Shown in pieces: positions 17,857 through 32,000 of a stretch of 32,000 nucleotides of DNA. The position numbers and the translations under genes are program-made. The notes under the pieces were generated by a model, which made no database searches, was not told the DNA's origin, and worked only from the letters and a program-made list of their open reading frames with translations. This DNA is from Methylorubrum extorquens (GTDB lineage Bacteria; Pseudomonadota; Alphaproteobacteria; Rhizobiales; Beijerinckiaceae), in NCBI GenBank assembly GCA_900234795.1, contig LT962688.1, positions 2,850,001-2,882,000 of the forward strand. The letters run 5' to 3'. The stretch's first letter is position 1, and each line of letters begins with the position of its first letter.

Positions 17857-18007
17857 TGAAACCGGTAGGATCGGGCTGAGAGGACTGAACAGAGGGCTAC
17901 GATTGTCAGGTATCCTTTGAACCTAGCCATTCTCAATTGGTCAGATTTCTGCTTTTTCAGGCAATGATTTGCATATAGTGATCTGACGATTTGGCGAGGT
18001 GTTGGAT

Positions 18008-18997
18008 ATGCGTTTCGCTTCAATCGAGGCACTCAGGGCTACGGCCGCGCTGCTTGTTGCAGCTCACCACTTATCGGACCACCGTTTCGTAACCGGCGCC
18101 GCTGGCGTTGATATATTCTTCGTCGTTTCCGGATTTGTTATAGGAAGTGTAGATACCAAAGTTCCGCCGGGCCAATTCCTTTTAAAACGTGCGATACGTA
18201 TCGTGCCGCTTTATTGGGCAACAACTCTTGTGCTTTGCGCAGGCGCGCTAGCAGGGCTGTTCGCCCGCTTCAGCTTCGATGGGGCCACCCTGGCGAAATC
18301 CCTACTTTTCGTGCCCTATTACAACGCCGAAGGTCAGATCTGGCCGTTGGCGATCTCGGGTTGGACGCTCAATGCTGAGATGCTGTTCTACGTCCTGTTC
18401 GCCACTGGTCTCTGGATCGGCGCGCCTCGGACGTTCTGCGCGGCAGCCCTGGCCGGGCTCGTGATCGCGGGCGCGATTTTCGCGCCCGAGAACGCCCCGC
18501 TGCGGTTTTGGACCTCGGCGATCATGCTCGAATTCATTGCCGGCCTTGCCCTTGCCGGGCCGATCCGTCTTTCCGGTCTCGGACGCGGGCTGAGCCTCGT
18601 TGCCGTCGGCGCGACCGGCCTCGTCGCGGCCGAGCTCGCTTGGCACTACACGGAAGCCCTACGGCCGCTCGTATGGGGCGGCCCAGCCTTCCTCATCGTT
18701 TGCGGCGCGCTGGCGATCGAGCGGGCCGGGCACTGGCCCCGGCGCGCCCTCGCCGCCCTGGAGCGGATCGGAGATGCCTCCTATTCACTCTACCTGACCC
18801 ATGGGTTCGTGATCGCGCTCGTGCATCGCAAGGTCGGCACGACCATTGCCGCCAACGCGATGGCTGTGCCGGCCTGCCTCGCGCTGGCGTTCCTGACCTA
18901 TTACGGCTTCGAGCGTCCAGTCGGGCGTATGCTCAACCGGCTCGCTCGACCGCACCCGAGAAGCGCGCTCGAATTGGCGGCAACCTCCACGCATTGA
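18008..18997 (+). CDS. acyltransferase family 3 (OafA/ExoZ-like integral membrane O-acyltransferase)
   Basis: ORF 17999..18997; the ATG at 18008 follows GGCGAGG. Polytopic membrane protein with N-terminal LRATAALLVAAHH, VDIFFVVSGFVI, a C-terminal SYSLYLTHG motif and FERP. Confidence 0.8.
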   Translation: MRFASIEALRATAALLVAAHHLSDHRFVTGAAGVDIFFVVSGFVIGSVDTKVPPGQFLLKRAIRIVPLYWATTLVLCAGALAGLFARFSFDGATLAKSLLFVPYYNAEGQIWPLAISGWTLNAEMLFYVLFATGLWIGAPRTFCAAALAGLVIAGAIFAPENAPLRFWTSAIMLEFIAGLALAGPIRLSGLGRGLSLVAVGATGLVAAELAWHYTEALRPLVWGGPAFLIVCGALAIERAGHWPRRALAALERIGDASYSLYLTHGFVIALVHRKVGTTIAANAMAVPACLALAFLTYYGFERPVGRMLNRLARPHPRSALELAATSTH

Positions 18998-20675: not shown

Positions 20676-21140
20676 TCACCCCTGCTTTCTTCCTCGTCTC
20701 AATGGTGCCACGCCCGTCGCCGCGGGCTCGGGCGCCTCTCCTCCCGCCAGATCGTCGAGAATCGGGCAGTCCGGTCGGTCGTCGCCGCAGCAGCGTTCGG
20801 CCAGATGTTCGAGGGTGCGGGCCATCGCCTCCAACTCGCCGATGCGGCGGCGCAGGTCGGCGACATGGCCGAGCGCCACGGCCTTGACCGCGCCGCTGGC
20901 GCGGGAGCGGTCGTGCCAGAGCGCCAGTAGGTCGGCGATCTCCCGCATCGAGAAGCCGAGGTCGCGGGCGCGGCGGACGAAGCGGAGCGCGTGCAGGTCG
21001 GCCTCGCTGTACACGCGATAGCCGGCGGCCGTCCGTCCCGCGGGGCCGAGCAGGCCCGTCTCCTCGTAGTAGCGGATCATCTTGGCCGAGACGCCGGTCG
21101 CGCGGGCCGCCTCGCCGATGGTGACGGAGGGCGCGCTCAT
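20676..21140 (-). CDS. cueR: Cu(I)-responsive MerR-family regulator CueR/HmrR
   Basis: N-terminal [27 protein letters not shown] and C-terminal metal loop [15 protein letters not shown] (compare E. coli CPGDDSADCPI). Its start overlaps the copA stop by 4 nt (21137-21140). Confidence 0.9.
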
Positions 21141-23635
21141 GCGGTGCCCCCCGCCCGCTTGAGGCGCAGCGCGTTGCCGACGACGAAGACGCTGGAGAGC
21201 GCCATCGCCCCGGCCGCCAGGACCGGCGAGAGCTGCGGACCGCCGAAGACCGCGAGCCCACCGGCGGCGACGGGGATCAGCGCCGCGTTGTAGGCAAACG
21301 CCCAGAACAGGTTCTGGCGGATGTTCGCGAGCGTCGCACGCGACAGGATCACGGCCTCGACCAGCCCGGTGAGCGCACCGGACATCAGCACGACGTCGGC
21401 ACTCTCCACCGCGATGTCGGTGCCGGTACCGATGGCGATACCGATATCGGCCTCGGCCAGAGCGGGTGCGTCGTTGATGCCGTCGCCGACGAAAGCGACT
21501 GCGCCGTGGGCCTCGCGCAAGCGGCGCAGGGCCGCGACCTTACCCTCGGGCAGCACCTCGGCCTCGACTTCGGTGATGCCGAGCGAACGCGCGACCGCCT
21601 CGGCGGTGGCGCGGGCATCCCCCGTCAGCATCGCCACGGTGAGGCCGCGGGCGCGCAGGGCGTCAAGGGCCGCCCGCGCCTCCGGCTTGACCGGATCGGC
21701 TACCGCGACGAGCGCCGCGAGTCGGCCATCCACGGCGGCGAAGATGGGGCTCTTCCCCTTCTGAGCGAGACGGCTCGCCTCGCTTTCGAGCGCAGCGGTC
21801 GTCACGCCGAGCCGTTCCATGAAGCGGCGGTTGCCGAGCGCCACCGCCCGCCCCTCGACTCGCGCCGAGACGCCGTGGCCCAGCACCGCCTCGAACGCTT
21901 CGGCGTCAGGGAGTGCCCCGGCGTCGCGCGCCGCGGCGGCGATGGCGCGGGCGACCGGATGCTCGGAGCGCGCCTCGACGGCGCCTGCCAGCGCCAGCAC
22001 ATTCTCCCGGGAGAAGCCTGGCGCGGTGACGAGATCGGTCAGGCGCGGACGGCCCTCGGTCAGCGTGCCGGTCTTGTCGAGGGCGATGACGCGGGCGTCC
22101 CGCAGCGCCTGCAGCGCGGCGCCCTGACGGAACAGGACGCCGCGTTCCGCCGCCCGGCCGGTACCGACCATGATCGAGACCGGCGTCGCCAGCCCCATGG
22201 CGCAGGGGCAGGCGATGATGAGCACGGAGATTTCCGCGACCAAGGCATGTCCGAGCGCCGGCGAAGGCCCAAGGACGAGCCACGCGAGGAAGGTCAGCAC
22301 AGCGATGGCGATGACGGCGGGCACGAACCACAGGGTGACCCGGTCCACCAGCGCCTGGATCGGCAGCTTGCCGCCTTGCGCCTCCTCGACCATCCGCACG
22401 ATCCGCGCCAGCGCGGTGTCGGCACCGGTGCGGTCCACTGTGAAGTCGAAGCTGCCAGTGGTGTTGAGGGTGCCGCCGACGACGCGGGCGCCCATGCCCT
22501 TCTCCACCGGCACCGGCTCGCCGGTGATCATGCTCTCATCGACGAAGGAGGCGCCCGATGCGACGAGGCCGTCCGCCGGCACGCGCTCGCCGGGCCGCAC
22601 GCGCACCCGGTCGCCGATCCTGAGGTCGGCCGCCGGCACCTCGCGCTCGGTCGCACCCTCGACCCGCCGCGCCGTCTTGGGCGAGAGGTCGATCAGCCGC
22701 GCGATCGCCGCGCCGGCCCGCCCCTTGGCGCGCGCCTCCAGAGTGCGGCCGAGCAGGATCAGCGTGACGATGAGGACGCTCGCCTCGAAGTAGAGATGCG
22801 CCGACCCGTCCGGCAGCCACCACGGCGCGGCGGTCGAGACCAGGGAGAAGAGGTAGGCCGCGCCGGCGCCGAGGGCGACGAGGGCGTTCATGTCGGGATG
22901 GCCGCGCAACAGGTTCGGCACGCCGATCCGGAAGAAGCGCCGGCCGGGCCCGGCCAGCACCAGGGTCGCGAGCACCGCCTGAATCCAGGCGAAGCCGCCT
23001 GCGCCGAGCACGCCCGTCACCGCATGGTGGAAGCCCGGCAGCAGATGGCTCCCCATGTCGAGGACCACGACCGGGGCCGACAGAACGGCGGCGACGATCA
23101 GGTCGCGGCGGAGTGCGGCCGCCTCCCGCTCCTGCCGATCCGCGTGTGAGGCGTCCGCTGCGGCACCGAGCGCACGCGCCTCGTAGCCGGCCTGCCGCAC
23201 GGCCGCCTCGACATCGCTCAGGGAGACGGTGCCGGCGGCGTGGTGCAATTCCGCCCGGCCGGTGGCGAGGTTCACGCTCGCCGAGACAGCACCGGGAAGC
23301 GCCATAAGGGCGCGCTCCACGCGTCCGACACAGGAGGCGCAGCTCATCCCCTCGACGGAGACGGCGGTGACGGATTCCGGCACGTCGTAGCCGGCTTCGC
23401 GGATTGCCTCGACCGCCCGCGAGGGTGGTAGGCCATCCGGCAGGGTAAGGCTGGCGCGGCCGGTGGCGAGATTGACAGCGGCATTGGTCACGCCGGGCAG
23501 CGCGCGGAGCGACCGCTCGACGCGTCCGACGCAGGAGGCGCAGCTCATGCCCTCGACCGGCAGGGTCAGGCGGGACGGCCGCTCGGCCTCAACGGGCGCG
23601 GGCGGCGTGGTGTGGGATTCAAGGATCGTTTCCAT
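21137..23635 (-). CDS. copA: copper-translocating P1B-type ATPase
   Basis: 832 aa with two HMA domains ([12 protein letters not shown] twice), the CPC motif ([13 protein letters not shown]), DKTGTLT and VGDGINDAP. Confidence 0.96.
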
Positions 23636-25151: not shown

Positions 25152-26207
25152 TCACGGGTCGTTCGCGGCCGCCCGGCGCCGCAGACGCTGCATTCCCTCG
25201 TAGATGCCGAGCATCACCAAGGCGAGGGCGAAGGGAACGAGGTAGTAGCAGACCCGGAACAGCAGCAGCGAGCCGAGCACCGACTCGCGCGGCAGGTAGG
25301 ACAGGGCGAGCAGGATCGTGGCTTCGAACACGCCGATGCCGCCCGGCGCGTTGGAGGCGATGCCGAGCATGGCGGCCAGCACGTAGATCGCCAGGAAGGT
25401 CGTGAAGGGGAGGTTCAGACCCTCCGGCATCAGCATGTAGAGCACGGCGGCCGCCGCGCAGACATCGCCGATGCCGACCACCATCTGGCTGAACGACACC
25501 GTGGCGCCCGGCAATTCGAGGTGCCAATGGCGCACCTTGATGTAGCGGCGCTTCACCGAGACCCAGGCGAGATAGCCGAGCACGAGCCCGAGCGTGCCGA
25601 AGCCGAGGATCTGATTGAGGCGCGCGGTGGTGTTGACGCCGATGCTCTTGAAGGTGAGGCTCGCGAGCTGGCCCGCCTCGATGATGAGGCTGAAGCCGAG
25701 CACCACCCCCATGCCGAGCCAGAAGGTGAAGCCGGCGATCACCGTCAGCGCGGCGATCTTGGCCGCCGACAACCCGCGCTTCGAGTAGATCCAGTAGCGG
25801 ATCGTCGCTGCGGTGATGAGCGGAAAGCCGAGGGTGAAGCTCACCGCGTAGCTCGTGAAGGAGGCGAGCGCCGTGATGCGGTAGGGCAGCTTGATCCGGA
25901 GCTGGCGCAGGGCGAGCGCGTCGTAGCAGGTCAAGAACAGGTAGCTGACCGCCACGAACAGGAAGGCTTCGGTAAGCTGGGTGGCGGCGACCGCAGTGAA
26001 GGCCGCCTGCAGCTCGGCCCAACTGATCTCTGCCGAGAGCTTCCACAGAACGCCGAGCGAGGCGACGATGAGGATGAGACTGGCGATCGTGCCGATCCAG
26101 GCATAGCGCCCGCGCTTCGATGCCTTCTTCGATCCGGCATCAGCCTCGCGGTCCGCGTCGGCCGGTTCGGCCTCCGTGACCATCCTGTGCTTCCCGGCAG
26201 GTTTCAT
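25152..26207 (-). CDS. UPF0104 / lysylphosphatidylglycerol-synthase-TM-region family membrane protein (flippase-like domain only)
   Basis: ORF 25152..26477 trimmed to the ATG at 26207 (26183 is an alternative). The untrimmed ORF would overlap the upstream gene and reads as junk. Polytopic, with LTCYDALALRQL, ...IASNAPGGIGVFEA... and LLLFRVCYYLVPF, which are typical of PF03706 proteins. Confidence 0.75.
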   Translation of the reverse strand: MKPAGKHRMVTEAEPADADREADAGSKKASKRGRYAWIGTIASLILIVASLGVLWKLSAEISWAELQAAFTAVAATQLTEAFLFVAVSYLFLTCYDALALRQLRIKLPYRITALASFTSYAVSFTLGFPLITAATIRYWIYSKRGLSAAKIAALTVIAGFTFWLGMGVVLGFSLIIEAGQLASLTFKSIGVNTTARLNQILGFGTLGLVLGYLAWVSVKRRYIKVRHWHLELPGATVSFSQMVVGIGDVCAAAAVLYMLMPEGLNLPFTTFLAIYVLAAMLGIASNAPGGIGVFEATILLALSYLPRESVLGSLLLFRVCYYLVPFALALVMLGIYEGMQRLRRRAAANDP

Positions 26208-26394
26208 GTGAGAACGGTATCCGCCTCCGCTGGTCGACCGCAGGGTGTATTCGGCGCGGGTCGTCCCGAGCGGTATCGATCCCGAACCGCCCCCGCGGCA
26301 TTTAGGGGCTTCGACCGGCAAAGGCCAGCGAAGGGCCACCGGCACGGGGATGCCCTGCACTGGGAATGCGGCCGAAATCACGGTATCCTGACCG

Positions 26395-27021
26395 TCACGG
26401 CGTCGCAGCGAGATGCCTGGCCGCCTCTGCCAAACCCGCCAGGATGCGGTCGCGCACGGCGGGCGCGGTGCAGACATAGGTCGGGCTCGGATGGGGTATC
26501 GCCACCACCGGCAGTTCCGGCCTCAAGGCGGAGAGCGGCGCCGACGCCTGGCGCGCAAAGCGCCCGGCCGGCACGACCACCGCGAGCCGCGGCAAGAGTG
26601 CAAGCAGCGGCGCGAAGTATGGCGCGGCAGCGCTCGCTTCCGCTCGGCGGGGCGCCCGGTTGAGGGCGCCAGGCGCGTGGATCACCCAGGGCACGGCGTT
26701 CCAGATCAGCGTGTCCCGCCGGGCGATCCCGGCCTCGGCCAGGAAGCGGAACAGGTTGGCGGCGGTGCCGGTCGGATTGTCGCGGGAGACGAAGCCGGTG
26801 CGGCCGATCGAGGGGCCCGGCGTCTCGAGCAGCAGGAGCAGCCGCGCCTCCACGCCGCCATCGAGCGGATCGGGATCGGGGACGGCCGCGCCCCGCTCGG
26901 CGGCGATCATGCGGGCGAAGGCGCGCAGCGGCCGGACATGCGGCGCGTCGGCCGTCGACCGGCGCGCCTGGAGAAGGGCGGGATCGCGCAGGCTCTTCGG
27001 CGCGTCAGGCGAAGCCGGCAT
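26395..27021 (-). CDS. uracil-DNA glycosylase superfamily (UDG-fold) protein
   Basis: 208 aa with an LETPGPSIG motif (like GE/QxPG motif A) and a C-terminal HPSPTY (HPS motif B). Its start overlaps the PIG-L stop by 17 nt. Confidence 0.55.
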   Translation of the reverse strand: MPASPDAPKSLRDPALLQARRSTADAPHVRPLRAFARMIAAERGAAVPDPDPLDGGVEARLLLLLETPGPSIGRTGFVSRDNPTGTAANLFRFLAEAGIARRDTLIWNAVPWVIHAPGALNRAPRRAEASAAAPYFAPLLALLPRLAVVVPAGRFARQASAPLSALRPELPVVAIPHPSPTYVCTAPAVRDRILAGLAEAARHLAATP

Positions 27022-27766
27022 CGCGCAGACCCGGCGGCACCCGGCCCTGCAAGCGGAAGCGTTCGACGCCGTTCTCAGCGGAAAGACGCGTGCGCAATCC
27101 GTCCGGCCCGCCGAACTGGAAGCCGATCTGCGACCCGTAGGCGGCGCAGGCCTCCGCCTTGCGGTGCTCGGCCTCCGAATCGAGGCGCACGACCTGCTCG
27201 GGCCAGTGCTCGAAGATCGACCTCAGCGGCTCTTTCGGCTCGGTGTTGCGCACCGTGTAGGGGAAGTCGCGCCACCACAGCACCGGCAGGGGCGGCTGCG
27301 CGGCGCGGAATGCGCGCACGACCTGCACGTGATCGACATGGCCGCCGACGGCCTGTGGCGCCAGGATCAGATCCGGCCCGGTATCGGCCACCAGCCGCTC
27401 GAAGGCGTCGGCGAGGTTGGCCCCGATCCGGTCGTCGGGGCGAAGTTCGGCGAACAATTCCGGCGCCGATGCGTAGCCGCGATGCGGCGCCTCCCGGAAC
27501 GGCAGGTGGACCGGCTCTTCGATGCCGAGCGCACGGGCCGCCGCGCGATCCTCCTCGCGGCGCAGGGCCATGTAATCGACCTCCGGCCCCAGCCCCTTGT
27601 CGAGCTGACAGGCCAGAGCGAAGCCGCGCGGGTCCCGCACCGATGCCGTGAAGATCGTCGCTATGACGACCTGCCAGCCCTGCGCGGCAAGCCGCGCCAG
27701 CGTGCCGCCTGCCGAGAAAACCGCATCATCGAGATGCGGCGAGATGGCGAGTGCGGTACGCGTCAC
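27005..27766 (-). CDS. PIG-L / LmbE family de-N-acetylase
   Basis: ORF 27005..28042 trimmed to the GTG at 27766 (VTRTALAISPHLDDAVFSAGG...). It has the zinc motifs PHLDD and GGHVDHVQV. The GTG overlaps the TGA of the upstream GT4 gene (GTGA). Confidence 0.85.
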   Translation of the reverse strand: MTRTALAISPHLDDAVFSAGGTLARLAAQGWQVVIATIFTASVRDPRGFALACQLDKGLGPEVDYMALRREEDRAAARALGIEEPVHLPFREAPHRGYASAPELFAELRPDDRIGANLADAFERLVADTGPDLILAPQAVGGHVDHVQVVRAFRAAQPPLPVLWWRDFPYTVRNTEPKEPLRSIFEHWPEQVVRLDSEAEHRKAEACAAYGSQIGFQFGGPDGLRTRLSAENGVERFRLQGRVPPGLRDAGFA

Positions 27767-29001
27767 AGCAGGTGCGGCTCCTTGCGGAAGCGGCAATCGG
27801 CGTCGATCGGCAGCGTGTCCGGGACATCCGTGTGCGGGCGCTCCCCGGCGACCTGCGCATAGACATCCATGATCTGACGGCCGACGGCGGTCCAGGAATA
27901 GACCCGGCGGCACTCCTCCAATCCAACCTCGGCGAGACGCTGGCGCAAATCGTCGTCCTCCACCACCCGCCGAAGGGCGGCGGTGAGCGCCCGCACATCG
28001 CCGGGATTCACCAGCAATCCGTTCTCTTCGTCCCGCAGGCAATCCGAGACGCCGACGGAGTGGGTCGAGACCACCGCGAGCCCGGCGGCCATGGCCTCCA
28101 GAATCGTGTTCGAGAAGCCCTCCGCGTAGGTCGGCGAAACGAAGACGTCGGCCTCGCGGTAGAGGTCCGGCACGGTGTCATAGTCGGCGTAGCCGGTGAA
28201 GCGGACCTGCGCCGAGGTGAAGCCGATGGCGTCCGCTTTCGCGCGGGCGGACTCGACATCCGGTCCGATGCCGGAGATCGTCGCGTCGAACGGCACGCCG
28301 GCCTCCCAAAGCCGCTCCAGGGCGTCGAGGAAATCGAGCACGCCTTTCCGGCGGTCGACCCGGCCGTGGTAGAGCAGCCGCACCGGCTCCTCGTCCTCAC
28401 GCTCGGCCTGGAAGCGTTCTCCTGGGGTGAAGCGGGCGGTATCGACGGCGCCGGGGACGATGGCGAAGCGAGTGGGATCGGAGCCGAGCCGGTCACACAC
28501 CTCCTTCAGGAAGGATTGCCCGCCGATCAGCAGGGCGTTGGCATGGGCCAGCACCTCGACCATCGCGCGGCGATGCGTCTCGCAGCAGGAGCCGACCCAG
28601 TGGCCGTCGCCGCCCTGGATCGAGACGACCGTCGGCACGCCGAGCCGCTTGCCCGCCAGCAACACCGCCCAGCCGGTCGGGTAGCCATATTGCGCGTGCA
28701 GCACGTCGAACGGCTTCTTGGCGTGCTCGGCGCAGATCGTCGCGACGATCGTATCGATGTCACGCTCGAAATCCCCGCCCTCCTGCTCGCCCTGCTGTTC
28801 GAGGCCGATGACATGGACGCCGGGCACGGCGGGCGGCGGGCCGCCGCCATAGACGCGCGTGCCGAATTCGTCGCCGCGATATTGCGAGATCATCGTCACG
28901 TCGTGGCCGGCCCCCGCCACCTCGCGCAGAAGGTTCTGCGCATAGACGCTCATGCCGGAGATCGCCGGGAAGTAGCGGCGGCTGACGAAACAGATTCTCA
29001 T
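27763..29001 (-). CDS. GT4-family (GT-B, retaining) glycosyltransferase
   Basis: 412 aa with N-terminal MRICFVSRRYFPAISGMSVYAQNL and a C-terminal EX7E region YAEGFSNTILEAMAAGLAVVSTHSVGVSDCLRDEENGLLV. Its ATG overlaps the stop of the TIM-barrel gene (ATGA). Confidence 0.9.
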   Translation of the reverse strand: MRICFVSRRYFPAISGMSVYAQNLLREVAGAGHDVTMISQYRGDEFGTRVYGGGPPPAVPGVHVIGLEQQGEQEGGDFERDIDTIVATICAEHAKKPFDVLHAQYGYPTGWAVLLAGKRLGVPTVVSIQGGDGHWVGSCCETHRRAMVEVLAHANALLIGGQSFLKEVCDRLGSDPTRFAIVPGAVDTARFTPGERFQAEREDEEPVRLLYHGRVDRRKGVLDFLDALERLWEAGVPFDATISGIGPDVESARAKADAIGFTSAQVRFTGYADYDTVPDLYREADVFVSPTYAEGFSNTILEAMAAGLAVVSTHSVGVSDCLRDEENGLLVNPGDVRALTAALRRVVEDDDLRQRLAEVGLEECRRVYSWTAVGRQIMDVYAQVAGERPHTDVPDTLPIDADCRFRKEPHLL

Positions 29002-29891
29002 GACGTGGGCAGCCCGGGCATCGCGGCTTCGCGCGGTGTGGTGTCCGGCATCGGAAGTCCGGGGCCGGGACGGCGGCAGGTGCGGAGATAATCGAGGGAT
29101 TGGCCGACCATCACGTCGGCGCGGTGCGACTCGCGCGAAAGCTCCACGCAGACGAGTTTGCTGAAACCGATCGCGTCGAGCGCGTCCAGAACGGCAGGGA
29201 CATCCATGTCGCCCTCGCCGAAGGGCAGATGGATGTGCTCGCCCCGCTTCATGTCCTCAATCGCCACGGTGCCGAGGCGCGGAGCGAATTCGTGCACGGC
29301 CGCGGCCGGATCGCGCTCCCCCGTGACGAGGCAGTGACCAGTGTCGAGGGCGAGCGAAAGGCCCGGCAGGTCGATCGCGGCAAAGTCATCGAGCGTCTCG
29401 ATCAGCATGCCGGGTTCGGGTTCGAGGGCTGCGACGACGCCCTTCTCGGCGGCGAAGTCGGAGACCTCGCGCAGCCCCTCGGTCAGCCATCCCCGCGCCT
29501 CGCTGTGGTCGACGCCCGGCTTCGGCACGCCGGCCCAGAACGAGACGGCTTCGGAGTTCAGGATCTTTCCGATCTCGATCGCCCGCTTGAGGAAGCCGAC
29601 GCGCCGTGCCCGGCCCGAAGCGTCGGCGGTGACGAGCGTCGGCTCGTGCTTGGCGGTCGGGTCGAGCAGGAAGCGGGCGCCGGTCTCGATCACCGAACCG
29701 AGTTCGAGCCGGTTCAGGAGGCTAGCAATGCGATCAGCCTCGATAACCCAATTCTCGGCGAAGGGGTCGAGATGGTGGATGTCGAGGGTGAGCGCGACGC
29801 CGTCATAGCCCGCATCCTTGATGAGGCGAATCGCATCCTCGATGCGGTGGTTGGCGGTGCCGTTGGTGTTGTAGGCAAAGCGCAAGCTCAT
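28998..29891 (-). CDS. xylose-isomerase-like TIM-barrel protein (sugar phosphate isomerase/epimerase, AP_endonuc_2 fold)
   Basis: C-terminal 297 codons of ORF 28998..30980, starting at the ATG at 29891 (MSLRFAYNTNG...). Motifs include ALEPEPG, LDTGH and HLPFGEGDMD. The ATG overlaps the YcaO stop (ATGA). The upstream part of the 660-aa ORF is an alternate frame of the YcaO gene. Confidence 0.85.
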   Translation of the reverse strand: MSLRFAYNTNGTANHRIEDAIRLIKDAGYDGVALTLDIHHLDPFAENWVIEADRIASLLNRLELGSVIETGARFLLDPTAKHEPTLVTADASGRARRVGFLKRAIEIGKILNSEAVSFWAGVPKPGVDHSEARGWLTEGLREVSDFAAEKGVVAALEPEPGMLIETLDDFAAIDLPGLSLALDTGHCLVTGERDPAAAVHEFAPRLGTVAIEDMKRGEHIHLPFGEGDMDVPAVLDALDAIGFSKLVCVELSRESHRADVMVGQSLDYLRTCRRPGPGLPMPDTTPREAAMPGLPTS

Positions 29892-31507
29892 GCGGGCCTC
29901 CGTTCGGCCCGGCGGCCCTGGCGTTCGTAGCGGAACGGCGCGTGGTGCGATTCCGGCTCGCGGTAGAGCGGATAATGCGAGCCGACGATCTGCTCGGCCA
30001 AGGCCACGTCGAAGAGCGGCTGGCCGCCGAGGCGCTCGATCGCCTCCGGCGTCAGGCGGACGGGCAGCAGCGTGTCGGTCGGCGTGCCGAAGCGGATCAG
30101 AGGGTGATCGCTTTCGATCAGCTTCTTCGCGTTGCGCTCGCCGATCCGGTAGTAGCTCATGGTCTCGACTTCGAGCCCTGGCACAATTGCCTTGACCACG
30201 CCGATCCCGCCGCCGGGCGGCGTGCAATCGACGTAGAGCACATCGAAGCCTGCCTCCTCCAGCCGGTCGCGGGCGATCTTTCCGCGAGCGTGACCGTCCG
30301 GGGCCGGTGTTGTCGGCAAGTCGGAAAACGCCTTGGTGCTGCGCTCGGAATAGACCGTGTTGCTCAGAACCCCACGCAGCTCGGCCGACGAGAGGTCGAG
30401 CCATGCGAGCATGGCCTGCAGCGCGCGGCTCTCCTCCAGATCGAGGCTCGGCAATGCCTTCTGGATGAAGGATTCGACATAGCCGGGCGGGGCCACCGTG
30501 TCGGCAAGCGCCAGCGGCCCGTGGCCGAAGGTTTTTCGGACGCGCGCCGCCTGAAACTCGAGAAGCGCCTTGCGCAAAGCCCGCTCGCGGTCCGGATCGC
30601 AGGCCTCGCCGCAGGCCGAGAGCGCGATCGGCGCGGGCGTCCGGGCCGGGTCCTCGTCGTAGCCGACGACGTAGAGGTTGGTGAGACCGAACTGATCGGT
30701 GGCGAATTTCGGCAGCGCCCGGATGCCGAGGCTTTCCAGCCGGTCGAGCATGCCGCGCGTCTCGGGGCCGATCCCGTCGAGATCGAGCATCACGCCCTGA
30801 TCGAGGGCCCGGAACAACAGGCCGTTGCCGTCGCGCTGGAGCAGTTCGAGCAGACCGTGGCCCAGCGCAAAGTTCACGTCCGGCCCGGCGCCGAGGCCGT
30901 TCGTGATGAGGTTGGTGAAGGGCTGATAGCCCTCGCGCAGCTCGAAGTAGTCGGTCGCGGCGATATCGAGCGGCATCCACACCGACTCGCCGGTGCGGGC
31001 GCGGACCGCCTTAGTCCAATCGAGCGGGGTATCGCGGCCGACGGAGGAACCGGCGGGCAGGCACAAAGTCAGCGGATCGGCGACGGAGGATGCGCCGTAG
31101 ACGCGCACGAGGTCGGCGTAGGAGACGGCCGCTTGGTTGTCGGCCTTGCGTGGCAGCAGGGCGACGGACGGCATCAGGTTCTCGGCGATCTCGGCCACCG
31201 CGCCGATCAGCGCTTCGTCGTCGGTGGCGCCGTAGCCGATGCCGGAAGGCATGGCGCCGACATAGAACGGATCATCGAGAAAGAGCGCCACGAACCAGAC
31301 CGGGATGCCGGTGCGGTCGAGCCCCGCGAGATTGAAGCCGACGACCCGGCCCTCCGGCAGCACATCGAGATAGGCCTTCACGACATCGGGCAGCCGCGCG
31401 GGCAGCCCCTCGATCTTGCGCGGAGAGCCGCGGTGATAGGGGCGCGGCGCCGCCAGATTCGGGTGGTGGGCGCGGTCGTCCCGGTCGAGGGCGTCGGTCG
31501 CTGTCAT
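29888..31507 (-). CDS. YcaO-domain protein (ATP-dependent amide-activating enzyme family), stand-alone
   Basis: ORF 29888..31543 trimmed to the first ATG at 31507 (MTATDALDRDD...). YcaO hallmarks are LDRTGIPVWFV, GYGATDDEALIGAVAEIAENL, ITNGLGAGPDVNFALGHGLLELLQRDG, a C-terminal EVETMSYYRIGERN and a Pro-rich end (HYPLYREPESHHAPF). Confidence 0.8.
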   Translation of the reverse strand: MTATDALDRDDRAHHPNLAAPRPYHRGSPRKIEGLPARLPDVVKAYLDVLPEGRVVGFNLAGLDRTGIPVWFVALFLDDPFYVGAMPSGIGYGATDDEALIGAVAEIAENLMPSVALLPRKADNQAAVSYADLVRVYGASSVADPLTLCLPAGSSVGRDTPLDWTKAVRARTGESVWMPLDIAATDYFELREGYQPFTNLITNGLGAGPDVNFALGHGLLELLQRDGNGLLFRALDQGVMLDLDGIGPETRGMLDRLESLGIRALPKFATDQFGLTNLYVVGYDEDPARTPAPIALSACGEACDPDRERALRKALLEFQAARVRKTFGHGPLALADTVAPPGYVESFIQKALPSLDLEESRALQAMLAWLDLSSAELRGVLSNTVYSERSTKAFSDLPTTPAPDGHARGKIARDRLEEAGFDVLYVDCTPPGGGIGVVKAIVPGLEVETMSYYRIGERNAKKLIESDHPLIRFGTPTDTLLPVRLTPEAIERLGGQPLFDVALAEQIVGSHYPLYREPESHHAPFRYERQGRRAERRPA

Positions 31508-31539
31508 CGTTACCCTGTTTGCGGCTCGCCGGAACTCAC

Positions 31540-31668
31540 CCAACCCACGGCCTCATCCTGAGGTGCGAGGCGAAGCAGAGCCTCGAAGGATCCTCCAGTT
31601 CCCACGCGGTCGCTGGAGGATCCTTCGAGGCCGCTCGCGCGGCACCTCAGGATGAGGGCATGGGTTGG
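31540..31668. repeat. 129-bp imperfect palindromic (REP/MITE-like) element
   Basis: The left arm ccaacccacggcctcatcctgaggtgc...gcctcgaaggatcctccag (31540-31598) pairs with the right arm ctggaggatccttcgaggc...gcacctcaggatgagggcatgggttgg (31613-31668). The outer 27 nt match at 25 positions, the inner 19 nt are perfect, and there is a divergent internal bubble. It generates the spurious + ORF 31519..31737. Confidence 0.85.
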
Positions 31669-31694
31669 ATGTGCCGGTCTCCTCCCAAATCTCG

Positions 31695-32000
31695 TCAGGC
31701 CGCGTCGCGGCCGGCCGGTTTGCCCGCCGCCGCGTAGGCGCGGGCGATCAGGCGCATGGTGTGCAGGTCGCGCTCGGCGTCCCAGGCGGTGCGCTCGTCC
31801 CGTTCGCGCAGGGCGCGGCCGAAGGCGCGCACCTGTTCGAGGAAGGGCGAGGCCGTCGTGTCGAAGGCGATGTCCTCGACCCGGCCATCCGCCCCGTTCG
31901 TGAAGGTGACGCTGCCGCCCGCGGTCTGGCCCATCGTGTCGGTCGCGGTGAGCATCCCACCGGTGCCAACCACCTCCAGCCGGCGGCGCGGCAGGGCGTC
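31695..32000 (-). CDS. Gfo/Idh/MocA-family oxidoreductase, C-terminal 101 codons; the gene starts beyond the window end
   Basis: The frame stays open to position 32000 (…LPRRRLEVVGTGGMLTATDTMGQTAGGSVTFTNG...ASPFLEQVRAFGRALRERDE...LHTMRLIARAYAAAG). This C-terminal alpha/beta dimerisation-domain pattern is typical of the family. Call made from a fragment only. Confidence 0.5.
   Translation of the reverse strand, partial: DALPRRRLEVVGTGGMLTATDTMGQTAGGSVTFTNGADGRVEDIAFDTTASPFLEQVRAFGRALRERDERTAWDAERDLHTMRLIARAYAAAGKPAGRDAA

Follow-up and report, generated by a model that had tools for sequence, protein, structure and literature searches.

The solved YcaO proteins nearest to the one described here are the methanogen enzymes that thioamidate a glycine of McrA (MJ1094, 6pe3/6peu; Methanopyrus, 6ci7). 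Two further groups are the azoline-forming cyclodehydratases (SagD, BalhD, LynD and McbD) of the thiazole/oxazole-modified microcins (TOMMs) and the stand-alone enzymes which form amidines in bottromycin, klebsazolicin and streptamidine. According to Russell et al. (PMC8442711), most stand-alone YcaOs have no known function. In the present study we analysed a stretch of 32,000 nucleotides of Methylorubrum extorquens (contig LT962688.1, positions 2,850,001 to 2,882,000, called the window hereafter), which encodes a YcaO-domain protein of 539 aa close to its end. A preliminary description had called this protein a stand-alone YcaO with no partner and no precursor peptide, and had left three options for it, namely an E. 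coli-type housekeeping YcaO, a substrate encoded elsewhere or a non-peptide substrate. It was found that the gene is the fifth of a translationally coupled operon, and on balance we think it probable that the YcaO is, as a dedicated enzyme, part of a conserved operon for a cyclitol and amino-sugar metabolite and not a maturase of proteins or of peptides that are synthesized by the ribosome and modified post-translationally (RiPPs).

With the methanogen thioamidation enzymes the M. extorquens YcaO shares the fold and a single-domain build with no fused E1 or RiPP recognition element (RRE). It differs from them in being only about 20% identical and about 150 residues longer and in carrying the motifs ELLQRDGN and LYPLYREPxxH, and from methanogen/TfuA thioamidating YcaOs in having no TfuA neighbour and in lying within a carbohydrate/cyclitol operon; no TfuA gene was found in the contexts inspected across taxa. 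The TOMM cyclodehydratases have the YcaO domain in common with it, and the reaction proposed below would likewise be a cyclodehydration driven by O-phosphorylation. In contrast to them, the M. extorquens YcaO has a different C-terminal motif and neither an E1-like/Ocin-ThiF partner nor a precursor; within 10 kb and in six further gene-called contexts, such a partner was missing, as was any Cys/Ser/Thr-rich precursor. Unlike the systems of the amidine-forming enzymes, clusters of the M. extorquens type contain no precursor peptide gene.

The YcaO gene within its operon

The exact YcaO protein was located on public contigs reaching 10 kb past the window end (locus L001). The genes are listed below from first to last, in window coordinates unless L001 is named.

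L001, upstream of the HD-like gene: myo-inositol-1-phosphate synthase, first gene of the operon
L001 6652-7572: HD-like protein, 306 aa, upstream of the methyltransferase gene (also in L087 and L089-L093)
L001, upstream of the Gfo/Idh/MocA gene: S-adenosylmethionine-dependent methyltransferase, 393 aa
31695..32000, minus strand (3′ end; full gene at L001 8785-9813): Gfo/Idh/MocA oxidoreductase, IolG-like, operon gene 4, 342 aa in full (Pfam GFO_IDH_MocA)
31508..31694, minus strand: non-coding spacer of 187 nt, mostly a palindromic repeat element at 31537-31671 (inverted repeats, RNA fold, Rfam)
29888..31507, minus strand: YcaO-domain protein, 539 aa, operon gene 5 (Pfam, NCBIfam, PDB profile search, Foldseek)
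28998..29891, minus strand: xylose-isomerase-like TIM barrel, 297 aa (Pfam AP_endonuc_2, 116.8 bits)
27763..29001, minus strand: retaining glycosyltransferase of family 4 (GT4), 412 aa (Pfam Glycos_transf_1 and Glyco_trans_4_4)
27005..27766, minus strand: PIG-L/LmbE-family N-deacetylase, 253 aa (Pfam PIG-L)
26395..27021, minus strand: protein of the uracil-DNA-glycosylase (UDG) superfamily, 208 aa, optional member of the cluster (Pfam UDG, E 4.6e-11)
25152..26183, minus strand: membrane protein with a flippase domain like the N-terminal part of MprF, 343 aa, 211 nt downstream of the UDG-like gene (Pfam LPG_synthase_TM)

The operon runs in this order from the inositol synthase to the UDG-like gene. 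The stop codon of YcaO overlaps the start of the TIM-barrel gene in an ATGA (29891-29888), and the genes which follow overlap as well (TIM barrel/GT4 by 4 nt, GT4/PIG-L by 4 nt, PIG-L/UDG-like by 17 nt); these genes therefore form one operon, in which YcaO is gene 5. In the related locus L089, the genes overlap or abut at each of the junctions between the HD-like gene and PIG-L. The preliminary description had the gene itself right, except for one coordinate that was a few bases off, and had missed both the operon context and the ATGA overlap.

The Pfam YcaO family (PF02624) matched residues 91-446 of the 539-aa protein with 161.9 bits (cut-off 25.7, E 3e-47), and the ATP-binding and catalytic motifs quoted earlier are both present in the translation. 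No domain besides YcaO was detected in the protein by Pfam, in agreement with the earlier statement that no E1-like, RRE or TfuA-like domain is fused to it. None of these is encoded in the 6 kb downstream either, as had also been stated; the genes there encode the TIM barrel and the GT4, PIG-L, UDG-like and flippase-like proteins. Directly upstream of position 32000, where a TfuA, E1-like or precursor gene had been proposed as the observation to look for, none is present in L001, and over the 10 kb beyond the window end neither a TfuA, E1-like or RRE gene nor a short Cys/Ser/Thr-rich open reading frame (ORF) was found. Genes for TfuA, E1-like and RRE proteins were likewise absent from the 10 kb to each side of YcaO.

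In order to classify the protein, it was scored against the NCBIfam subfamilies, and all scores fell below the cut-offs, with 94.3 bits for the SagD type TIGR03604 (cut-off 219.25), 63.6 bits for the methanogen thioamidation type TIGR03266 (365) and 38 bits for the generic YcaO kinase domain TIGR00702 (75.65); judged from its sequence, it lies outside every curated NCBIfam subfamily. A search of the PDB with the single sequence matched MJ1094 only, and the family profile retrieved MJ1094 (E 4.5e-14), Mk-YcaO, LynD, TruD and MusD; E. coli YcaO was not retrieved from the PDB by the profile at E<=1. When an AlphaFold model (predicted local distance difference test 74.7, predicted template modelling (TM) score 0.77) was submitted to Foldseek, 41 YcaO chains and no other fold were found at E<=1e-3. 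The best match was again MJ1094 (E 4e-19, TM 0.74 on the target, about 20% identity), and E. coli YcaO ranked 24th and below (TM 0.42, root-mean-square deviation about 12 Å), under the archaeal and cyanobactin enzymes.

By its homologues and motifs the M. extorquens YcaO can be placed in a distinct, well-delimited clade, which comprises 152 clusters at 50% identity (E<=1e-30, full-length matches); two clade motifs, which find the closer branch alone, gave 467 matches among GTDB species genomes. The nearest relatives are a JGI cluster (99% identity), Methylobacterium sp. Leaf123 (97%) and M. populi (94%). The first acidic motif, E106-x-x-E109, is invariant in the clade. The second reads E221-L-L-Q224-R-D (ELLQRDGN, around window 30836-30859, residues 217-224), and its Q is invariant across the clade at a position where the profile alignment gives ExxERD in MJ1094, Mk-YcaO, LynD, TruD and MusD; in E. 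coli YcaO the Glu so replaced presumably binds Mg2+. The clade has a further signature near the C-terminus, the conserved motif LYPLYREPxxH.

The region between the oxidoreductase and YcaO genes was then read for a precursor. The oxidoreductase stop (TGA at 31697-31695) leaves 31508-31694, which is the spacer of 187 nt reported earlier, and its sole ATG frame indeed reads MPSS-stop (ATG 31661-31659) and lies inside a long inverted repeat. The purine-rich GGGAGGAG is also present, at 31679-31686 and not at about 31682-31689 as given before, and it has no start at a working distance, the first ATG being 17 nt downstream. Most of the spacer is a nested palindrome of about 135 nt (31537-31671) with inverted repeats I1 (37-nt arms) and I2 (19-nt arms, 100% complementary), and the RNA fold of the hairpin gave -120.7 kcal/mol (z = -9.7). 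An Rfam scan of the spacer found no family at threshold, and a promoter and terminator search of it gave no match. In 86 Methylobacterium/Methylorubrum loci, YcaO codon 14 lies between 24 and 293 nt from the oxidoreductase stop, so that the spacer varies from none to one of about 250 nt; the two genes abut or overlap in many Methylobacterium species, and the arms of the repeat turn up again in other intergenic positions of this operon in further species of the genus. The palindrome is a dispersed insertion resembling repetitive extragenic palindromes (REP) or miniature inverted-repeat transposable elements (MITE), and is neither a precursor nor a regulatory leader. The many Methylobacterium species which lack the spacer have no room for a precursor between the two genes, and a precursor peptide in the spacer was ruled out. 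The earlier conclusion that the RiPP architecture of leader peptide, YcaO and partner is absent is borne out by this spacer and by the lack of TfuA, E1-like and RRE genes within 10 kb.

The neighbours of YcaO are enzymes of sugar and cyclitol chemistry. The best NCBIfam match of the dehydrogenase is inositol 2-dehydrogenase IolG (112 bits, under its cut-off), and the TIM barrel has weak NCBIfam matches only, to sugar epimerases, isomerases and IolE, with UlaE as its closest PDB sequence (E 9e-5). This pair resembles IolG and IolE/IolI of inositol catabolism, where a Gfo/Idh/MocA dehydrogenase is likewise paired with a xylose-isomerase-like TIM barrel on the inositol ring, but the matches are weak and under cut-off, the setting here is biosynthetic, and IolD, IolB, IolC and IolJ are absent. 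PDB sequence relatives of the GT4 include PimA, MshA and BshA, and PIG-L comes closest, among solved proteins, to Dbv21 and Orf2* (E 1e-18), which deacetylate the GlcNAc of glycopeptide pseudoaglycones. Taken with the inositol-1-phosphate synthase, GlcNAc transfer by a GT4 and deacetylation by a PIG-L/LmbE enzyme recall the early steps of mycothiol and bacillithiol synthesis (Ino1, MshA, MshA2, MshB; BshA, BshB), a pathway logic which includes a phosphatase step. The families match, but all scores against the mycothiol equivalogs of NCBIfam are below the cut-offs, at 44 bits for Ino1 (cut-off 638), 88 for the GT4 against MshA (462) and 19 for MshB (224). In place of an MshC/BshC cysteine ligase or an acetyltransferase, the operon has the dehydrogenase, the TIM barrel, the methyltransferase and YcaO, and neither MshC nor MshD was found in the operon or within 10 kb.

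Conservation of the gene set

To see how far the YcaO gene and its neighbours stay together, the locus was compared within the genus and beyond it. The set of ten genes that begins with the inositol synthase and ends with the flippase-like gene is kept in the same order in every one of the 86 Methylobacterium/Methylorubrum loci that is long enough. With unrelated flanks and at 41-64% YcaO identity, the core set was found in a Beijerinckiaceae metagenome-assembled genome (MAG), on another contig, and in Acuticoccus, Craurococcus (Acetobacteraceae), Corallococcus coralloides (Myxococcota) and Tundrisphaera (Planctomycetota). The set from outside Methylobacterium comprised 80 metagenome loci in addition to these contexts, and 40 of its loci had at least 5 kb upstream and at least 4 kb downstream of YcaO. 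HD-like, Gfo/Idh/MocA, GT4 and PIG-L genes stood beside YcaO in 36 of these 40 loci and in 14 of the 16 YcaO lineages (clustered at 70% identity). The gene order was variable, as in L096 and L107, where it is GT4, PIG-L, metallo-β-lactamase (MBL)-like, YcaO.

The first step of the pathway also varies. In 8 of the 40 loci a sugar-phosphate cyclase of the dehydroquinate-synthase family takes the place of the inositol synthase, and TIM-barrel genes occur in 26 of 27 clusters of the inositol-synthase type and in none of the 8 of the dehydroquinate-synthase type. From this distribution two routes seem to converge on one carbocyclic intermediate, and the pattern fits a carbonyl intermediate derived from the carbocycle and reached by either route. 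A fusion of PIG-L with YcaO was found in Acuticoccus (P0137, a complete 4-Mb genome), and several metagenome contigs gave continuous matches over both domains. The exporters beside the cluster differ by taxon, with MatE, EamA, MFS and BrkB proteins in different taxa and the flippase-like protein in Methylobacterium. The fusions, the exchange of the cyclase and the taxon-specific exporters argue for a functional rather than merely inherited link of YcaO to the cluster. A comparison of the small ORFs around the clusters of different lineages yielded none that is conserved, the matches being low-complexity, out-of-frame artefacts or neighbours specific to one lineage, and genes for TfuA, sulfur transfer, E1 or RRE were absent from seven gene-called contexts of different taxa.

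In Craurococcus (L093, 14929-21485) the cluster continues on the same strand with genes for an epimerase, a family 2 glycosyltransferase, an acyl carrier protein and an AMP-binding enzyme, followed by a FabA-like dehydratase, a lipid A-type acyltransferase and a LolA-like protein; these genes hint that the product may be lipid-linked in that organism.

Outside Methylobacterium the YcaO gene has a regular companion. In most other lineages of the clade, an MBL-like protein of 280 aa, with an N-terminal CxxC..CxxC (zinc) ribbon and an HxHxxG motif and weakly PqsE-like, is encoded next to YcaO or fused with it. Separate genes for it are found at the following places.

L090 6799-7656: MBL-like protein
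L091 9160-10008: MBL-like protein
L092 9171-10004: MBL-like protein
L093 9159-10004: MBL-like protein

MBL-like::YcaO fusions occur in at least four representatives (P0139, P0156, P0165 and P0175). The spacer of M. extorquens occupies the position where other lineages have this gene, and tblastn at E<=0.01 found no remnant or copy of it in the window or in the 86 Methylobacterium loci; among the best 120 of 1022 homologues of the protein, none of those with an organism name comes from Methylobacterium. The MBL-like protein is a characteristic and previously undescribed companion of the clade as a whole. The description of the YcaO as stand-alone and without partner is thus correct for the M. 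extorquens locus and does not extend to the clade.

Upstream of the operon, a GGAAC-N17-GTT motif was found at L001 5345-5369, about 100 nt before the inositol synthase start and about 4.5 kb beyond the window end. The GGAAC and GTT boxes are kept in 72 of 78 Methylobacterium loci, the sequence between them varying freely, and the motif was found in none of 40 upstream regions from other lineages. As it matches the EcfG general-stress promoter motif GGAAC-N17-20-GTT described in Sphingomonas melonis (PMC6599016), we read it as EcfG-type, which suggests that in Methylobacterium the operon would be induced by stress and that its product could hence be a protective metabolite.

Proposed substrate and rival explanations

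Of the three options left by the preliminary description, a non-peptide substrate is the best supported, by the conserved cyclitol and amino-sugar operon and by the gene fusions. A small molecule is favoured because the neighbours PIG-L, GT4 and the IolG-like dehydrogenase are enzymes of small molecules, and because nothing of the logic of a peptide pathway is present, there being no TfuA, E1 or RRE, no conserved small ORF and often no spacer at all. The clade may accordingly be the first of the YcaOs to act on a small molecule instead of a peptide; a full-text search of the literature gave no paper on this cluster or on any small-molecule or non-peptide YcaO substrate.

Starting from the family assignments, the gene coupling and the fusions, we infer from the neighbouring genes which chemistry takes place, in what order, and what serves as nucleophile and as carbonyl, as follows. 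The carbocycle would be made by the inositol-1-phosphate synthase, or in other lineages by the dehydroquinate-synthase-like sugar-phosphate cyclase. The MshA/PimA-like GT4 would put an N-acetylhexosamine on a ring hydroxyl, and PIG-L would strip off the acetyl group to leave a free 2-amine. The IolG-like dehydrogenase and the TIM barrel could turn the neighbouring ring hydroxyl into an enolisable carbonyl, and the methyltransferase would cap this carbonyl intermediate. At the cost of ATP, YcaO would then transfer phosphate to the oxygen of the adduct which the amine (or ammonia) forms by attack on the carbonyl or (vinylogous) amide, and expulsion of the phosphate would give a C=N bond, the product being a cyclic imine, an enaminone or an amidine, for example a sugar-fused 1,4-oxazine. 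Such a step, by which a sugar-fused ring would be closed or aminated on the deacetylated hexosamine-cyclitol intermediate, would keep the canonical mechanism, in which a nucleophile is added onto a carbonyl and the oxygen leaves as phosphate, with the substrate alone changed. In the synthesis of mycosporines and gadusol, a carbocycle made from a sugar phosphate is methylated, and in mycosporines the enone oxygen is then activated by ATP through the ATP-grasp enzyme MysC, so that an amine gives the C-N/C=N chromophore. The likeness to the YcaO clusters lies in the dehydroquinate-synthase-family cyclase of some of them and, by analogy, in methylation followed by ATP-driven formation of C=N; the differences are that the ATP enzyme here would be YcaO instead of an ATP-grasp or non-ribosomal-peptide-synthetase-like ligase, and that the amine would come from the amino sugar.

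A compound of this kind has been described from the genus. Methylobacterium sp. W-213 produces methylobamine, a metabolite that absorbs UVA and in which, according to a review (PMC13567104), a pyrano-oxazine that includes a galactopyranose is combined with an iminoacetic acid unit and a chain of five carbons. From GT4, PIG-L and YcaO one would expect an O-glycoside with its 2-amine condensed on a neighbouring carbonyl, so that O1 and N2 of the sugar are tied into a 1,4-oxazine, and in addition a further C=N, and for this reason we raise, tentatively and as an unlikely assignment, that the Methylobacterium operon is the gene cluster for methylobamine or a close relative. The conserved EcfG-type promoter would fit a sunscreen role. 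It counts against the link that the aglycone is not a six-membered carbocycle. No methylobamine gene cluster was found in the literature searched.

Several points weigh against a small-molecule substrate. The closest solved structure is that of a protein-modifying enzyme, the McrA thioamidation YcaO, and every YcaO with a demonstrated substrate acts, to our knowledge, on a peptide or protein backbone. If PIG-L removes the only obvious amide, YcaO would need a ketone or a vinylogous amide as its electrophile, for which we know of no precedent in the family, and the Glu-to-Gln change at the ExxERD motif could mean an altered or reduced ATP chemistry. The putative substrate is assigned from gene neighbours only, and many of the compared loci come from related metagenomes and hence are not independent. 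Furthermore, YcaO is found without the cluster in 2 of the 16 lineages. In the one (L112, L130 and L133, with YcaO at about 10000, 3900 and 10000), the gene is divergent from a sugar-type ATP-binding cassette (ABC) transporter with SBP_bac_1 and two permeases, which could serve the uptake or salvage of a related compound; in the other (L173), it stands beside fumarase.

The most serious of the rival explanations is that YcaO modifies a peptide or protein encoded elsewhere, by forming a backbone thioamide, an azoline or an amidine, and that its place in the operon reflects co-regulation or glycosylation of the same target. All known YcaO substrates being peptides or proteins, and MJ1094, the nearest solved relative, being a thioamidase of McrA, this explanation has the family background on its side, as well as the four loci in two lineages where YcaO lies away from the cluster and the fact that the context covered was about 20 kb per genome. 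On the other hand, the seven gene-called contexts contain no TfuA, sulfur-transfer, E1 or RRE gene, no conserved small ORF accompanies the clusters, and the PIG-L::YcaO and MBL-like::YcaO fusions, like the fact that the linkage outlasts both the shuffling of gene order and the swap of the cyclase, are hard to square with co-regulation alone. A substrate encoded elsewhere, as the preliminary description had put it, has thus gained nothing in its favour within the inspected loci, and we keep it as a rival, though an unlikely one. Somewhat less likely still is that the acetamido group on the N-acetylhexosamine is itself the target of YcaO, before or instead of its deacetylation, and is converted to an oxazoline, acetamidine or thioacetamide. 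No other classical amide is predicted from the operon, amide activation is the chemistry of YcaO, and the PIG-L::YcaO fusion places both enzymes at the same group or at adjacent steps; yet a deacetylase taking the same amide would compete, the presence of PIG-L in 36 of 40 clusters fits a need for the free amine downstream, and no gene for a sulfur or nitrogen donor is found in the cluster.

Two other explanations were weighed. The operon might make a membrane lipid of glucosaminyl-inositol like that of glycosylphosphatidylinositol (GPI) anchors (compare PIG-A and PIG-L of eukaryotes and some archaea), flipped by the MprF-like protein and with YcaO as an accessory. The inositol synthase, a GT4 (to which PIG-A also belongs), PIG-L and, in Methylobacterium, the flippase-like gene directly downstream are what such a lipid would call for, but the core has no CDP-alcohol phosphatidyltransferase or other lipid-linking gene, the flippase-like gene is missing outside Methylobacterium, the inositol synthase can be replaced by a dehydroquinate-synthase-like cyclase, and the dehydrogenase, the TIM barrel and the methyltransferase would have no role; we regard this explanation as quite improbable. 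The last is that of an E. coli-type housekeeping YcaO, a helper of RimO in the methylthiolation of ribosomal protein S12. Several homologues carry the automatic name 'ribosomal protein S12 methylthiotransferase accessory factor' (some of them JGI annotations), clade loci also being named 'SagD family', and the YcaO gene is universal in the genus. Judged by sequence and fold, orthology to the RimO accessory was rejected, as the TIGR00702 score of 38 is below 75.65, the family profile misses E. coli YcaO at E<=1, Foldseek gives a TM of 0.42, and the operon context is entirely different; this first of the three original options is hardly credible. A dedicated enzyme of the cyclitol and amino-sugar pathway remains the explanation we prefer.

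Accessory genes, the rest of the window and significance

The HD-like protein found only the YfbR-like HD protein in a profile search (2cqz, E 0.0045), and it has an invariant HH..N where YfbR-like HD proteins have HD..E. Its gene always follows the cyclase gene, also where the cyclase should release no phosphate ester. Because of the HH..N motif and of its presence in cyclase clusters in which phosphate should no longer remain, a role as a plain (inositol-)phosphatase is doubtful, and the protein is probably not one. A MIOX-like ring-cleaving oxygenase was also considered and finds no support in the sequence, the profile reaching 2cqz only.

The UDG-like gene is limited to the Methylobacterium, Beijerinckiaceae MAG and Craurococcus clusters, and a PDB sequence search with its product found no relative; a gene of the uracil-DNA-glycosylase superfamily is here translationally coupled to a sugar deacetylase gene within a biosynthetic operon. 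The flippase-like protein matched the bifunctional MprF of NCBIfam over its N-terminal part (E 2e-58, scored on the longer ORF 25152-26477). Its gene adjoins the operon in Methylobacterium loci only and is absent elsewhere, and the protein may be the exporter of the operon product. On the other side, beyond the inositol synthase in L001, there is a divergent lytic transglycosylase gene followed by unrelated genes.

The remainder of the window is ordinary core chromosome, with asd, rimP-nusA-infB-truB and cueR-copA-like genes. At 20676-23635 (minus strand), just downstream of a histidine kinase gene, an ordinary copper-efflux module is encoded, which consists of a CueR-like regulator of the MerR family and a heavy-metal P-type ATPase of the CopA type that has two HMA domains. 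An Acyl_transf_3 membrane acyltransferase gene at 17999-18997 (plus strand) stands in a patch with a G+C content of 0.63, compared with about 0.68, and a strong AT skew of -0.24, and may have been acquired horizontally.

YcaOs are treated as enzymes of peptide-backbone chemistry and are flagged as RiPP markers by genome-mining tools, and a clade acting on a small molecule, if true, would change this view. ATP-driven activation of the amide type would then extend into small-molecule biosynthesis, the MBL-like protein would be a new kind of YcaO partner, and those loci of the clade that at present bear the name S12 methylthiotransferase accessory factor or SagD family would need to be re-annotated. 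For the model methylotroph M. extorquens, in which genes are routinely knocked out, and its relatives, it would mean a stress-regulated metabolite made by a core operon, which would also be a candidate gene cluster for the UVA-absorbing compounds of leaf-surface Methylobacterium.

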